NCBI GenBank assembly: GCA_964610885.1
Contig: CAZSWR010000002.1
Span: 23,811-87,810 of the forward strand
From: an uncultured Hyphomicrobiales bacterium
Lineage (GTDB): Bacteria; Bacteroidota; Ignavibacteria; Kapaibacteriales; UBA2268
Reading direction: 5' to 3'
Length of the DNA: 64,000 nt
Each line of letters opens with the position of its first letter. Within the stretch, counting starts at the first letter, position 1. Of the stretch, positions 14,080 through 18,487 are shown piece by piece. The notes beneath the pieces were generated by a model. It was not told the DNA's origin, made no database searches, and was given only the letters and a program-made list of their open reading frames with translations. The position numbers and the translations under genes were made by a program.

Positions 14080-14787
14080 ATGAATATGTTACTTTTCGCA
14101 ACAAAACTAATAATGATTGCCGTCTCGACGGTATATTATTCGCTGAGTGTGCTCTTCCTGCTTGCCCGGAAAAAGTCTGGGGACGACGTTTATAACGAAA
14201 TTGTGAGGTGGTCCGCTTCACTGCTGCGGATCACAGGTGTGAAGATAGATGTTACGGGCCTGGAGAATCTGCCGGATGGCGAATCGTTCGTGTTTATGCC
14301 GAACCATTCGTCCTTGTTCGATATTCCGGTATTCCTGTGTGGCATCGGCCGGAAGACATCGATTATCTACAAAAAGGAGCTTGAACGGGTGCCGATTTGG
14401 GGCTATGCGCTCAAGAAATCGCCGTTCATCAGCATCAACCGTGCGGACGCCCGCGAGGCAATGGGCGCGATGGAAGAGGCGGCTCGCAGCCTGGACGAGG
14501 ACGCATCGATTCTGATTTTTCCGGAGGGGACGCGGTCAGAAGACGGGCGCTTGGGCGAGTTCAAACGCGGAGCTTTTATGATGGCCGGATTCACAGGGAA
14601 GCGCATTGTGCCGGTTACGCTGATTGGTACGGCAGAAATTCTGCCCCGAAAAAAATATTTTTTCAAGAGTGGAACTGTTCGTTTCATAGTCGGCAGTCCG
14701 CGGGAAGTGCCTGATAAAAAAGACCGTTTGGCCGAGAAGGCCTTAATAGCAGAGCTTCACGAAGAAATAAAAAATAATTTACCATAA
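14080..14787 (+). CDS. plsC: 1-acyl-sn-glycerol-3-phosphate acyltransferase
   Basis: HX4D acyltransferase motif NHSSLFD and FPEGTRS motif. ATG at 14080 precedes the N-terminal TM helix. The track start at 13948 runs through the terminator and was not used. Confidence 0.85.
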   Translation: MNMLLFATKLIMIAVSTVYYSLSVLFLLARKKSGDDVYNEIVRWSASLLRITGVKIDVTGLENLPDGESFVFMPNHSSLFDIPVFLCGIGRKTSIIYKKELERVPIWGYALKKSPFISINRADAREAMGAMEEAARSLDEDASILIFPEGTRSEDGRLGEFKRGAFMMAGFTGKRIVPVTLIGTAEILPRKKYFFKSGTVRFIVGSPREVPDKKDRLAEKALIAELHEEIKNNLP

Positions 14788-14842
14788 AAAAAGTATTTGG
14801 TAGATCGGAAAAAAGTTCGTAATTTTGAATTCTAAGTTCTTT

Positions 14843-14915
14843 GGTCAGGTAGCTCAGTTGGTAGAGCAGTGGACTGAAAATCCACGTGTCGGCGGTTCAA
14901 ATCCGTCTCTGACCA
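14843..14915 (+). tRNA. tRNA-Phe (anticodon GAA)
   Basis: A cloverleaf can be read by eye. Acceptor GGTCAGG/TCTGACC, D-arm GCTCAGTTGGTAGAGC, anticodon stem-loop GTGGA-CTGAAAA-TCCAC, T-arm GGCGG-TTCAAAT-CCGTC. CCA is not encoded. Confidence 0.95.
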
Positions 14916-14928
14916 CAACACAAAAATA

Positions 14929-14957
14929 AGCCTCCGAAATTCGAGAGGCTTTTTTTT
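14929..14957 (+). terminator. Rho-independent terminator after tRNA-Phe
   Basis: GCCTCCGAA/TTCGAGAGGC stem followed by T7. Confidence 0.8.
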
Positions 14958-15517
14958 ATGTCTCCCCGCATTAGGACTGAAACCCATTCTAAGTAACACA
15001 GCATTCTGTTCATATTACTATTGATATTCAGACGTTGCAAGCATTCATCGGCAGTGACTGCTAAAAATAGAAAAAAAATTTATATTACTGTGAAATTATT
15101 ATTTGTATTTAATAATAAAATATTTGTATGTTTGTATTAAAGTCAATTGATATAGTAGAATGTGATTTCGTTCATCGGTGTTAGCACCGGGTATTGAAAT
15201 AAAGACCTCCCCCAAAGAGAGTATTATGGTACTCTTTGCTGGTACACAAAGTGGTTGTTCGGAAAGCTATACGTAGCCGGTAACGACTACTTCGCGAATC
15301 TTTTGTATGCAGTGACGGGAGTTCCTAAGCGAGCTACAGTGCGAGTAGGGGAGATGGAATGGGAGAGGCAGGGGAAGTGGAGGGAATATGAAATAAATCA
15401 AATCCATAGTAATTATCAAGTTATAAAGCTGACCAGTGAATTAGTTGTTTATGTGAAGGGAATGGCGTCTACGAAGTGGTGAATATTAATATTTTTAAAA
15501 TAAATTAGAGAATTGAA

Positions 15518-16084
15518 ATGATAGAATTTTGGAAATTATTTTCTGAGGAATTATTTAACAATCTTAATTTATTGAGGAATGGTTGGTTTTTAAGATATTA
15601 TGATAAGTCAAAATTTACTTATCATACAATAAATAGTATTATTCCATTTGTTGGAAAAAGATTAGGGCTTGAAATAGAATCTGAGTTAAGATTACCTGAT
15701 CATAGTAGAATAGATTTTGTATATGGTAGAAATATTCATAATCGTTTTCAAATTAATTTTGCAATTGAACATGAGAATGAATGGGATTCTTGGTATGAAG
15801 AATTACTAAAACTCTCAGAATTGAATTTGGATATAAAAAAAGTGCTAATATCATATTACCATTGGCGTGATGAAAATATTGATTGTGTAAAGCATAACAT
15901 ATTATATAATTGTAATCCCCAAAGACTTAATAAAGATTTCCTTTTTATATTTGGGCCAGGTGAGTTTCCCAAAAATGATCTTGGAAAAAAAAGTGTAAAA
16001 GATCAAGATTACAAAGCATTTGTATTTAATGGAACTAAATTTGAAGATTTAGAAGATATTCCAATATTAAGAAATCTTAAATAG
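15518..16084 (+). CDS. Hypothetical protein with a possible restriction-endonuclease-like core (islet gene 1)
   Basis: 188-aa ORF with strongly AT-rich codon usage. The segment HSRIDFVY...(16 aa)...FAIEHENE resembles the D...E-x-(K/E) strands of the PD-(D/E)XK fold. The family was not recognised. Confidence 0.4.
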   Translation: MIEFWKLFSEELFNNLNLLRNGWFLRYYDKSKFTYHTINSIIPFVGKRLGLEIESELRLPDHSRIDFVYGRNIHNRFQINFAIEHENEWDSWYEELLKLSELNLDIKKVLISYYHWRDENIDCVKHNILYNCNPQRLNKDFLFIFGPGEFPKNDLGKKSVKDQDYKAFVFNGTKFEDLEDIPILRNLK

Positions 16085-16194
16085 AAGTAATATATGATTA
16101 TTTGAAAATTCCGAAGCCATTTGCTTGATTATGATTATTGAGTGGCTGCATCTCTCATATTTATTGATTAATTACAAACTAACTGGAAAATGAA

Positions 16195-17388
16195 ATGGAA
16201 AAGTTAAAACTGTTGGAAGAATATTCAAAAATATCAAATGAACTAAAAGAGAACATGCTATACAATCTTTCTAAATCTTCGAAAGAACTCTTTCATAGCG
16301 ATTTTATATGCTGGCTTATAAACAAATATCCAACGGCTTTGAGGAGGATGTTTGAGAGAGTATTGGACAAAGAATTGAAAGATTTTTCAATTTGCCAAAG
16401 AGAAAAAGATAGGTTGGATCTTTCCATTTGTGGCATCAATAATGATCCTAATTTCAATCCCAATTCCAATATGCTTTTAGTTATTGAAAATAAAGTCAAG
16501 AGTTATCCATATAAAAATCAATTAATTAAATATAACAAGACATTAGAAAAAGAATTAAATGTAGAAAAAATTCTTCTGACATTATTTAACCCGACACAAA
16601 AAGATAGTATTGAAGGTTGGACTGTCGTCGAATACAAAACACTATTTAACAAAAACAATTGCAAGGAATTATTAGAATCGGCTACTCAGAATGACCAATA
16701 TATTATCAATCAATATTTGGATTTTTGGAACAATATGCAATTGATTATTAAATATGTAAATATGAATGATTCTTTTGCTTTGTTCGACAGGGATAATAAA
16801 ATATTTACTACACTAAATGATATTGGCCTGGGTTACAACTATATAAAAATATGTTACTTGGATTTAAGTTTTAAAGTATTTGAATCTTTGAAAAAATCCT
16901 CGGATGTTACTTCTGCAATTCTTACAGAATCATGGTTGGTCGAGAAAGGTGCGTTCAATGTCTCTTCTTGGTTCACCAATAGAAGCAATCAACCATTAGT
17001 TGATATAAACTATTGCATTGAGAATAAATCAAAAAGTCGTGGGTTTGGTGTTCAATTACAAGAAAGAGGTTTTAAATTATATTCAAACACTTCACAAGGA
17101 CAAATCGAATTGCCACTAAATGTATTAAAAGAGCTGTTGAAAACAATTCAAGAAAACAATAGTGATCTATTTGATGAAACAGTGAGAAACATCGGACAAA
17201 GAGAATCTTCTAAATCAAACAACACCTACAAGTATGTAAAGTTAAATCTTCGATCTGACATTACCGTAGAGCAAGTTACGAACCTTATGGTGTCTTCAAT
17301 GCTGCTATTATACAATGACTACATAGCTAATAATTATAAACGCGAAAAAATACAACCAATAATTGGCAAAATTTCTACTGATAATTAG
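16195..17388 (+). CDS. PD-(D/E)XK nuclease superfamily protein (islet gene 2)
   Basis: 397 aa. The N-terminal pattern ELFHSDFICWL...RLDLSI...LLVIENKVKS...QLIKY (H, D, ExK, QxxxY) is typical of PDDEXK-type orphan nucleases. The C-terminal ~230 aa are unassigned. Confidence 0.6.
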   Translation: MEKLKLLEEYSKISNELKENMLYNLSKSSKELFHSDFICWLINKYPTALRRMFERVLDKELKDFSICQREKDRLDLSICGINNDPNFNPNSNMLLVIENKVKSYPYKNQLIKYNKTLEKELNVEKILLTLFNPTQKDSIEGWTVVEYKTLFNKNNCKELLESATQNDQYIINQYLDFWNNMQLIIKYVNMNDSFALFDRDNKIFTTLNDIGLGYNYIKICYLDLSFKVFESLKKSSDVTSAILTESWLVEKGAFNVSSWFTNRSNQPLVDINYCIENKSKSRGFGVQLQERGFKLYSNTSQGQIELPLNVLKELLKTIQENNSDLFDETVRNIGQRESSKSNNTYKYVKLNLRSDITVEQVTNLMVSSMLLLYNDYIANNYKREKIQPIIGKISTDN

Positions 17389-17585
17389 CAGGTACATTTC
17401 AAAGCATAAAGCAAACTCCACAGCGAATATCAGTATTTCAGATCGATTTGATGGGCTTGTGTTATTTACATAAAGCCCATCAATCGTATTATACGCTCTT
17501 CCACATAATACAGCCAATCGCTTATGCACTAATATTCTCGTAACCTTCTGTGTTCTTCGTCTCTCTTGCAATCGCCACCTTCCAC

Positions 17586-17876
17586 TCACACCCAATCGCT
17601 GAGGAACGCTTGGTGCTTCACCGGCTCGAATTCCGTTACGGTGTGCGTGGCCACGTTTTCCAAATGGTAGGGATCATTTAAGAAAAAGTTTACTATCTTT
17701 TCGCGTGATTCGGCGCGGCACACGATGATTCCGCCCGTCCTGGGGCTCTTCGGGCCGGAGCAAAGCAATAACCCCGCCTCGTATCCGGTTTGGAGAAATT
17801 CGCGGTGGCGCGGAAGGACCGCTTCGATGGCTTCTATCGGCTTCGTGTAATTAATATCTACAATGAAATGTTTCAT
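17586..17876 (-). CDS. YciI-family protein
   Basis: 96 aa. MKHFIVDINYTKP...HREFLQTGYEAGLLLCSGP...GGIIVCRAESREKIVNFFLNDPY matches the YciI pattern. Confidence 0.8.
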   Translation of the reverse strand: MKHFIVDINYTKPIEAIEAVLPRHREFLQTGYEAGLLLCSGPKSPRTGGIIVCRAESREKIVNFFLNDPYHLENVATHTVTEFEPVKHQAFLSDWV

Positions 17877-17977
17877 ACAAAATGTCCTGCATGATTAACA
17901 ATAAACACTATTGTATAATACGTTGGATGTTGGGTTTTGTTCGTGGAAATTTTGGAATATTTTCAAGTTATCACGCG

Positions 17978-18487
17978 CTAAAACAGGCCAATGCGAATGA
18001 CCAATTTATTGTCGTCGTTGACGTAAACCTTCTGTAACAGGCACTTTTCGATGCCCGACAAATTGTACAGCGGCACCTGGCGGAAGTATTTATTCACTAT
18101 GTAATTCGACACAGCCGTCTCGACACCCCACACGTCCCCAAAGAAATTGAAATTGTCCACTTTGATATTCGAGAAGAAAATCGTGTCGTGCAGTATCAGC
18201 GGCGAACCGGAAAACGTGATCGTGCCGTTCTTTTCCACTTCCAGTCCCAGAATGGATTTATGCACCGCGAGCGATACTTTTATCTGCACCGAATTTTTGT
18301 TGTATTCCAGTATGACCGTATCAATCTGTTTGATCCGCAGGTTGACGACCGACAAATCCTGTTCGCGCGGGAGGCTTTCGTTGGCCTTGTCCTTAATTTC
18401 TGTATTGGTCAGTCTGTAATTGTAGCACGCCTGGGCCATCAGTGCGAGAGCCATTATTAAACCGAGAAGGATACTTTTGCTTTTCAT
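17978..18487 (-). CDS. DUF1439 (YceB-like) lipoprotein
   Basis: ATG at 18487 gives the lipoprotein signal MKSKSILLGLIMALALMAQAC. Size and layout are YceB-like (YRLTNTEIKDKANESL..., ...VSNYIVNKYFRQVPLYNL...). The track's longer ORF overlaps the upstream gene. Confidence 0.55.
   Translation of the reverse strand: MKSKSILLGLIMALALMAQACYNYRLTNTEIKDKANESLPREQDLSVVNLRIKQIDTVILEYNKNSVQIKVSLAVHKSILGLEVEKNGTITFSGSPLILHDTIFFSNIKVDNFNFFGDVWGVETAVSNYIVNKYFRQVPLYNLSGIEKCLLQKVYVNDDNKLVIRIGLF

Follow-up and report, generated by a model that had tools for sequence, protein, structure and literature searches.

The locus considered here raises the question whether two adjacent genes lying next to a transfer RNA gene form one undescribed functional system. 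It is located in a window of 64,000 nt (contig CAZSWR010000002.1 of assembly GCA_964610885.1 from an uncultured bacterium; positions below are those of the window), where the tRNA-Phe gene (GAA; 14843–14916, plus strand; found by ARAGORN, Rfam tRNA score 70.9 bits) is the left landmark of an AT-rich islet with two co-oriented open reading frames (ORFs), ORF1 (188 aa; 15518–16084, plus strand) and ORF2 (397 aa; 16195–17388, plus strand). A first-pass annotation of the window had described the islet as compositionally deviant, and proposed the two ORFs as a candidate two-gene module of nuclease-like proteins, possibly with an anti-phage function. We favor another interpretation, to which we assign a probability of about 0.6: approximately 2 kb of foreign DNA at a synteny breakpoint 3' of tRNA-Phe carries two independent single-gene accessory modules, which are probably anti-phage. 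The description on which the earlier proposal was based is accurate, as tRNA-Phe, its terminator and both co-oriented ORFs are found where they had been placed, and the quoted strings (SRIDFVY, FAIEHENE, HSDFICWL, RLDLSI, VIENKVKS and QLIKY) are all present in the translations.

The islet is most likely horizontally acquired, accessory low-GC DNA of about 2 kb. Compared to all 6694 windows of 2 kb in the 3.65-Mb assembly (mean GC content 0.477, standard deviation 0.040), the segment 15400–17399 has GC content of 0.282 (z = –4.86), which makes it the second most AT-rich 2-kb stretch of the assembly, only 0.015% of windows being as low. In the window scan, GC content is 0.26–0.31 throughout 15400–17400 and 0.45–0.55 in both flanks. 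The same is seen in the genes: GC content at third codon positions (GC3) is 0.148 in ORF1 and 0.294 in ORF2, compared to 0.58–0.68 in six flanking genes, and this gap exceeds chance by far. Among 40 relatives of the source genome, the ORF1 family is absent (0/40) and the ORF2 family is present in two (2/40), both distant. Hence the islet is confirmed as compositionally deviant and supported as accessory; of its proposed extent, from tRNA-Phe to about 17.4 kb, the end holds but the start does not. The regions 14952–15169 (GC content 0.275) and 15401–15517 (0.282) are AT-rich, as is intergenic DNA elsewhere in the genome; the patch between them, 15170–15400, is host-like in GC content (0.472), purine-rich, and has strongly positive GC skew. 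As AT-rich intergenic DNA is normal here and this patch is host-like, the clearly foreign part is approximately 15400–17400, and does not start at 14916.

ORF1 and ORF2 are not one conserved two-gene system. ORF2-family loci were scanned in six frames with a hidden Markov model (HMM) of the ORF1 family, and no ORF1 relative has been found in any of 80 loci from 185,579 species genomes (±8 kb flanks, 1.0 Mb in total), in any of the seven loci from a sample of 400 genomes of the phylum, or in any of four loci from metagenomes and relatives. Reciprocally, a gene of PDDEXK_4 (PF14281), the Pfam family of ORF2, was found in none of about 13 ORF1-family loci (L005, L012, L013, L014, L017, and contigs of P0123, P0124, P0126, P0127, P0128, P0144, P0151 and P0157). 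In the approximately 400 phylum genomes, the ORF1 family is present in two (G145 and G286) and the ORF2 family in seven others, so that both families are found together only in the source genome. The closest ORF1 relative, 53% identical, has a terminator-like hairpin of its own behind it, and the 340 nt downstream contain no ORF. The four nearest genes in each of 34 ORF2-family loci (136 genes) show no dominant partner, the most frequent family, DUF2779, accounting for 6 of the 136. Neither ORF1 nor ORF2 matches a toxin-antitoxin family, and the pair is not conserved.

These data make it highly improbable that ORF1 and ORF2 constitute one obligate system, be it a nuclease with a partner, a toxin with immunity, or a sensor with an effector. 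Its attraction is local: the genes are adjacent, point the same way and are separated by 110 nt in which no terminator-like site is seen, both are AT-rich, and in four ORF2 relatives, too, a small gene of the same orientation directly precedes the family gene. The census of about 90 ORF2-family and about 13 ORF1-family loci with no co-occurrence largely refutes it, and with it the proposed two-gene module; moreover, the upstream genes of ORF2 relatives are related neither to ORF1 nor to each other, GC3 differs two-fold between ORF1 and ORF2, and PADLOC lists ORF2 relatives as single-gene candidates. We considered these small upstream genes, including a 183-aa one in Marinicella, as possible analogues of ORF1, and rejected them for lack of similarity. 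As the scan found no terminator-like site in the AT-rich gap 16085–16194, co-transcription of ORF1 and ORF2 is possible; if it occurs, it would be accidental and local to this genome. In practical terms, the main result is a negative one, in that the “paired nucleases beside a tRNA” are a coincidence of two independent genes, which is a useful caution for scans resting on context alone.

What, then, is the role of the tRNA gene? The linkage of PlsC and tRNA-Phe (14083–14916) is retained in 12 genomes of the family (at least 12 genera; loci L019–L039), and the DNA 3' of tRNA-Phe differs in every genus. Because everything downstream differs, tRNA-Phe is a long-standing synteny breakpoint. None of nine relatives has the genes of the right flank (YCII, DUF1439-like, DUF5683 and RidA) within 12 kb of the tRNA; since the right flank is nowhere syntenic and the genus has a single genome, no empty site is available for comparison. 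The 22-nt 3' end of the tRNA has no second copy in the 64-kb window (at up to three mismatches), and a repeat search in 14700–18200 revealed no flanking direct repeat or att scar. A tRNA gene lies within 2 kb of the ORF2-family gene at only one of 80 loci, so tRNA adjacency is a local circumstance rather than a trait of the family. The anti-phage context perceived in the earlier proposal is therefore retained in part: relatives of both genes are indeed often found among defence and toxin-antitoxin genes, whereas the tRNA-adjacent position is not characteristic and no integration scar is seen. The absence of an integrase, a methyltransferase and an ATPase, noted previously, agrees with our scans of the islet ORFs and with Pfam; no methyltransferase is encoded between PlsC and YCII, and the cognate DNA methyltransferase that would lie beside the nuclease gene in a type II restriction-modification (R-M) system is not present.

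A related possibility is that the islet is what remains of a larger integrative element, inserted at tRNA-Phe and since decayed with the loss of its integrase and att sites, the two genes being leftover and possibly non-functional cargo. It would account for the tRNA-adjacent position, for the compositional island with edges of intermediate GC content, and for the non-coding spacer of 558 nt (14960–15517), with its odd host-GC patch, between the tRNA and ORF1. We consider it very unlikely, as no repeat of the tRNA 3' end is present in the window and no integrase fragment was detected, both ORFs are full-length and retain every family-invariant residue, and the proximity to a tRNA is the exception among ORF2-family loci mentioned above. 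The spacer presumably contains the ORF1 promoter. It has no Rfam match, its folding (z = –0.93) is not above that of shuffled sequences, and searches in 60 genomes of the family yield low-complexity AT matches only. For the patch 15170–15400 itself, these 60 genomes contain no relatives, Rfam has no match, and the folding z-score is the same –0.93; it may be what is left of native DNA or of an earlier insertion. A 75-aa ORF at 15255–15482 has no Pfam or family match and is unsupported as a gene.

Judging by sequence, ORF2 is a PD-(D/E)XK nuclease-family protein with a conserved additional C-terminal domain. It matches PF14281 with 41.4 bits, above the gathering cut-off of 22.3 (E = 2e-10), residues 20–174 being aligned with model positions 2–181 of 183, and three PDC-S26 HMMs of PADLOC (best E = 3e-10, another one 2.6e-7); NCBIfam and PHROGs yield nothing of note. 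In the alignment of 40 sequences, E31, D75, E98, K100 and Q109 are invariant. This E31/D75/E98-x-K100/Q109 pattern is the classical set of helix Glu, Asp, ExK and Gln, and in the AlphaFold2 model (pLDDT, the predicted local distance difference test score, 83; pTM, the predicted template modeling score, 0.80) the catalytic-motif residues fall on elements H32-44, E76-80, E93-100 and H107-117. Nuclease activity of ORF2 is thus very likely, in agreement with the PD-(D/E)XK signature recognized in the first-pass annotation. The model consists of an N-terminal alpha/beta nuclease domain (approximately 1–150), long helices (157–234), and a C-terminal alpha/beta domain (240–390) with five consecutive strands followed by alpha-beta-alpha. 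In the latter, G290, R294, Y345 and Y347 are nearly invariant in the same alignment; for this domain, about 160 residues long, there is no Pfam model, and the search with the full-length query gave no structural match. Two origins considered for it, a degenerate duplicate of the N-terminal domain and kinship with ORF1, were rejected (hhalign, 0.1%). The ORF2-family profile has no match among PDB sequences at E up to 10.

By these matches, ORF2 is a new divergent member of an already known, uncharacterised candidate group, and the statement that no known system could be recognized has to be amended. Its relatives number 142 in 5.8 billion clustered proteins, where they are mostly about 400 aa long and the best matches are 28–33% identical, and 221 in the 185,579 species genomes, where they are scattered patchily across many bacterial and archaeal phyla; 40 out of 40 relatives match the PDC-S26 models. 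ORF2 resembles PF14281 in the whole-model match above the cut-off and in the E / D / ExK / Q set, and differs in the low identity to its best relatives and in that the model covers the N-terminal domain only. The resemblance to PDC-S26 includes similar length (profiles of 397–415), the single-gene organization with no fixed partner, and the location of the relatives beside or inside type I R-M loci; the difference is that the match is confined to the nuclease core and the gene in this window lies outside any defence system. As the match covers approximately 113–160 of 400 positions, ORF2 is a distant cousin of PDC-S26 rather than its clear member.

Both reference groups are themselves poorly characterized. 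The 2012 survey of the PD-(D/E)XK superfamily listed PF14281 as “function unknown” (Steczkiewicz et al., PMC3424549), and the PDC systems are 145 candidates, not experimentally tested, which were nominated for being embedded (“guilt-by-embedding”) in loci of BREX, DISARM and type I R-M (Payne et al., bioRxiv 10.1101/2024.01.29.577857). No anti-phage test of PDC-S26 was found in the literature searched, where the one paper that names it gives its counts.

The genomic neighborhoods of ORF2 relatives point in the direction of defence in part. The Marinicella relative lies beside DarT-DarG, a KAP NTPase and IS66, another one beside a type I R-M system, a WYL/WCX regulator and AAA_21, and further neighbors include type I R-M subunits, AAA_15/21, a C-5 methylase, SWI2/SNF2, helicases, DUF2779, helicase-nucleases of the DUF4011-AAA_11/12-MTES_1575 type, and a second PDDEXK_4; many other neighbors are unrelated, non-defence genes. 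A role of ORF2 in DNA repair or recombination of the host, rather than in defence, seems improbable. It would be consistent with the many repair nucleases among PD-(D/E)XK enzymes, with the listing of PF14281 as having unknown function (PMC3424549), and with these non-defence neighbors, but not with the patchy distribution (7 of 400 phylum genomes) and extreme foreign composition, the recurrence of R-M, DarTG, WYL and helicase-nuclease genes nearby, and the lack of conserved repair partners. Overall, we consider a defence role of ORF2 somewhat probable, to a clearly lesser degree than its nuclease activity.

If ORF2 acts in defence, its N-terminal metal-dependent PD-(D/E)XK domain would perform the cleavage, and the C-terminal domain, joined to it by the long helices, may recognize the target or a phage cue and thereby gate the cleavage. 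Such gating could allow a methylase-less single-gene nuclease to spare the host DNA. Two modes of action may be suggested, that is, a type IV-like restriction of modified or foreign DNA, or an infection-triggered suicide nuclease. Type IV modification-dependent enzymes such as Mrr and MspJI combine a PD-(D/E)XK nuclease with a reader domain, and ORF2 is similar to them in being one polypeptide with no cognate methyltransferase, in which the catalytic domain is accompanied by another conserved domain, a possible reader of the target. However, the domain order is reversed and there is no sequence similarity to any solved structure, so that the comparison is an analogy only; the weak structural match to MspJI was obtained for the ORF1 model, and not for ORF2. 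Being a true defence gene, ORF2 would represent a divergent branch of the PDC-S26 / PDDEXK_4 candidate class from a Bacteroidota-like lineage. At 397 aa it is a compact case for studying how a nuclease that has no methylase avoids cutting the genome that encodes it, and the C-terminal domain is the obvious place to look.

The DUF2779 proteins adjoining some ORF2 relatives are a separate observation. They contain a Cas4/RecB-like nuclease domain, are about 510 aa long, and are found next to ORF2 relatives at three loci (L091, L114 and L136) and at related Bacteroidales loci. Such pairing may be specific to one lineage, gut Bacteroidales; as several of the Bacteroidales loci look near-identical, the independent events are few.

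ORF1, in turn, belongs to a family that is rare and is not described by any profile library searched. ORF1 has no match in Pfam, NCBIfam, PADLOC or PHROGs. An exhaustive phmmer search in 1.84 billion representatives yields a family of 29 proteins, nearly all of 183–204 aa, and a profile search of the set of 5.8 billion proteins adds a handful of members. In the family alignment, D66, E84, E86, W92, L99, V109, Y113 and G146 are invariant, E95 and N87 nearly so, and K98 is retained in at least 90%, the consensus being R-I-D ... A-I-E-H-E-N ... W-x-x-E-L-x-K-L. The AlphaFold2 model is confident (pLDDT 94.1, pTM 0.90) and comprises three N-terminal helices, a core, and a terminal alpha-beta-alpha-beta-beta region. 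The core, alpha(30–48), beta(52–55), beta(67–73), beta(76–85), alpha(92–100) and beta(107–115), has the order alpha-beta-beta-beta-alpha-beta; D66 is at the start of beta2, E84 and E86 at the end of the antiparallel beta3, and K98 on the next helix. By their place in the order of the core elements, these residues fit a PD-(D/E)XK site with Glu in the Lys position.

Similar arrangements are known: the active site of BamHI comprises D94, E111 and E113, with Glu in place of Lys. ORF1 is like BamHI in having an acidic triad, D66 / E84-x-E86, at the beta2 start and beta3 end of an alpha-beta-beta-beta-alpha-beta core, and unlike it in showing no detectable sequence or significant structural similarity, in having no adjacent methyltransferase, and in being a lone 188-aa protein. 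The weak Foldseek matches of the ORF1 model in PDB include TSEN, PaqCI, BsmI, BbvCI, Bax1, NucS/EndoMS, MspJI, Mus81 and BsaWI, the matches to restriction-endonuclease-fold proteins having E of 0.1–0.7 and template modeling (TM) scores of 0.23–0.35; in BFVD, the named weak matches include phage proteins called “Restriction endonuclease” (E = 9e-3, TM 0.36) and “RecB family nuclease”, and entries called “PD-(D/E)XK” and “MmcB-like”. The alignment of the ORF1 family with the N-terminal domain of PDDEXK_4 by hhalign has a probability of 33% (E = 4.6e-4) and spans beta1–beta2 with the catalytic Asp, and that with the full-length profile, 8%; the ORF1-family profile has no match among PDB sequences at E up to 10. 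Taken together, ORF1 is fairly likely to be a divergent PD-(D/E)XK-fold protein, with putative nuclease activity. The nuclease fold suggested for ORF1 by the earlier annotation is thus plausible by the core order and conserved residues, with no significant fold match.

We also considered the possibility that ORF1 is not a nuclease, but a small regulatory, immunity or anti-restriction-type protein with a three-layer alpha/beta fold. This is a doubtful but the least improbable of the alternatives, given that no nuclease shows significant structural or sequence similarity to ORF1, that its only match with E < 0.001 is to the non-catalytic central domain of acetyl-CoA carboxylase, and that the canonical Lys of (D/E)xK is absent. 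On the other hand, the conserved D, E-x-E and K occupy precisely the start of beta2, the end of beta3 and the helix that comes next, the named weak matches are repeatedly to restriction-endonuclease-fold enzymes, and the profile aligns with the catalytic hairpin of PDDEXK_4. ORF1 is, therefore, predicted here to be a small restriction-endonuclease-fold protein, probably an oligomeric PD-(D/E)XK-type nuclease that acts alone, separately from ORF2, and constitutes either defence or addiction cargo or a selfish cassette.

The neighborhoods of ORF1 relatives are diverse. On one contig (P0126; ENA ERZ1426853, 8423 nt), the hsdR gene of a type I R-M system is followed, at a distance of 32 nt, by an ORF1-family gene, in the order hsdS-Fic-hsdR, ORF1-family gene, DUF6361, 304-aa gene. 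Other relatives lie beside HicA, beside DUF6577/AbiEii genes of the AbiEi/AbiEii type, or beside HigB, VapBC and BrnT, and one is located on a contig whose ORFs are small, co-oriented and almost all without family matches. No conserved non-coding DNA has been found around ORF1 relatives. The arrangement on the P0126 contig represents the “embedded gene” pattern that is used to nominate PDC candidates.

A duplication within the ORF1 family is seen in G145, where a unit of 919 bp containing only an ORF1-family gene is present in two copies (L013:6688–7606 on contig C2 and L014:6612–7530 on contig C3), 98.4% identical, with sharp ends and unrelated flanks, and with neither terminal inverted repeats nor target-site duplication. 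This might suggest a selfish free-standing gene, homing-endonuclease-like or self-mobile, of no benefit to the host; PD-(D/E)XK homing endonucleases, such as I-Ssp6803I, do exist. Such an interpretation would also explain why the family is extremely rare and patchy, why its members are always lone genes in unrelated contexts, including one between the core genes KsgA and RecG, and why ORF1, with its GC3, has no sign of adaptation to the host. Still, we regard it as unlikely, as the genes lie in neither introns nor inteins, the relatives share no conserved target or flanking sequence, the G145 unit has no terminal inverted repeat or target-site duplication, several copies reside in toxin-antitoxin and defence clusters, which fits defence-island cargo equally well, and a single duplication event is thin evidence.

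A broader suggestion, tentative and on balance rather unlikely, is that ORF1 represents the first known member of a new family, that is, very small PD-(D/E)XK-type nucleases of about 190 aa that act alone and have a D / E-x-E / helix-Lys site. They would serve either as a minimal single-gene module for anti-phage defence or addiction, or as a cassette that is itself mobile and is multiplied as a block of about 0.9 kb, as in G145, with neither inverted repeats nor duplicated target sites. The location of ORF1 beside ORF2 would then reflect a landing site that collects such genes. Whatever its function, ORF1 is the more original lead of the two, as a confidently folding family absent from four profile libraries, with a few dozen members among billions of proteins, which recurs near genes of R-M and toxin-antitoxin systems and can be duplicated as a single gene.

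The origin of both genes is consistent with two modules that may have arrived jointly or separately. The closest ORF1 relatives are on contigs with GC content of 25–30%, and the examined ORF2 relatives, on contigs with 32–40%, which fits low-GC donors, possibly different ones. Neither family was found in phage and plasmid collections (tblastn); in IMG/VR, there was no match for ORF1 and one for ORF2, at the end of a contig.

Several observations weigh against two independent, probably anti-phage modules in foreign DNA. The PDC systems are candidates only, and the defence role is proposed for both families from sequence and context. The match of ORF2 to PDC-S26 covers just the nuclease core (profile positions 92–204 or 43–204 of about 400), and Foldseek with the full-length ORF2 model, both domains being left unsplit in the query, yields noise only. 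For ORF1, the third catalytic position is Glu instead of Lys, Foldseek finds no significant nuclease fold match in PDB or BFVD, and the sole match with E < 0.001 is the carboxylase domain mentioned above; approximately half of the ORF1-family contexts are not defence-like (KsgA-RecG, redoxin, TPR, MORN). In the source genome ORF1 and ORF2 are co-oriented neighbors that no terminator separates, and they may be functionally linked at this one locus. Finally, the islet boundaries are drawn from composition alone, as no empty site has been found.

The surroundings of the islet are of host type. The left flank encodes MarR and a PlsC-type acyltransferase, and the right one, YCII, DUF1439-like, DUF5683, RidA and aldehyde dehydrogenase. 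Downstream of tRNA-Phe, a hairpin AAGCCTC...GAGGCTT followed by a T-run (14928–14959, plus strand), read in the sequence, is the tRNA terminator; the terminator scan lists its stem on the minus strand only, and by sequence it looks bidirectional. At the other end, ORF2 and the YCII-family gene (17586–17876, minus strand; PF03795, E = 1.1e-10) are convergent and separated by a spacer (17389–17585), where GC content is back to 0.40. The spacer contains a hairpin GATGGGCTT / AAGCCCATC (17450–17481) with a 9-bp stem, a 14-nt loop and no T-run, which may be a transcription stop common to ORF2 and YCII. The latter, with GC3 of 0.649, is the first gene of host composition on the right and lies outside the islet.

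The sole stretch of the genome that is more AT-rich than the islet is outside the window, on contig C1 (42816–46331; 2-kb GC content 0.279). Its lowest-GC part is inside a single ORF of 1172 aa on the minus strand, adjoined by an ORF of 351 aa, and the gene is a probable further case of a foreign gene in this genome.

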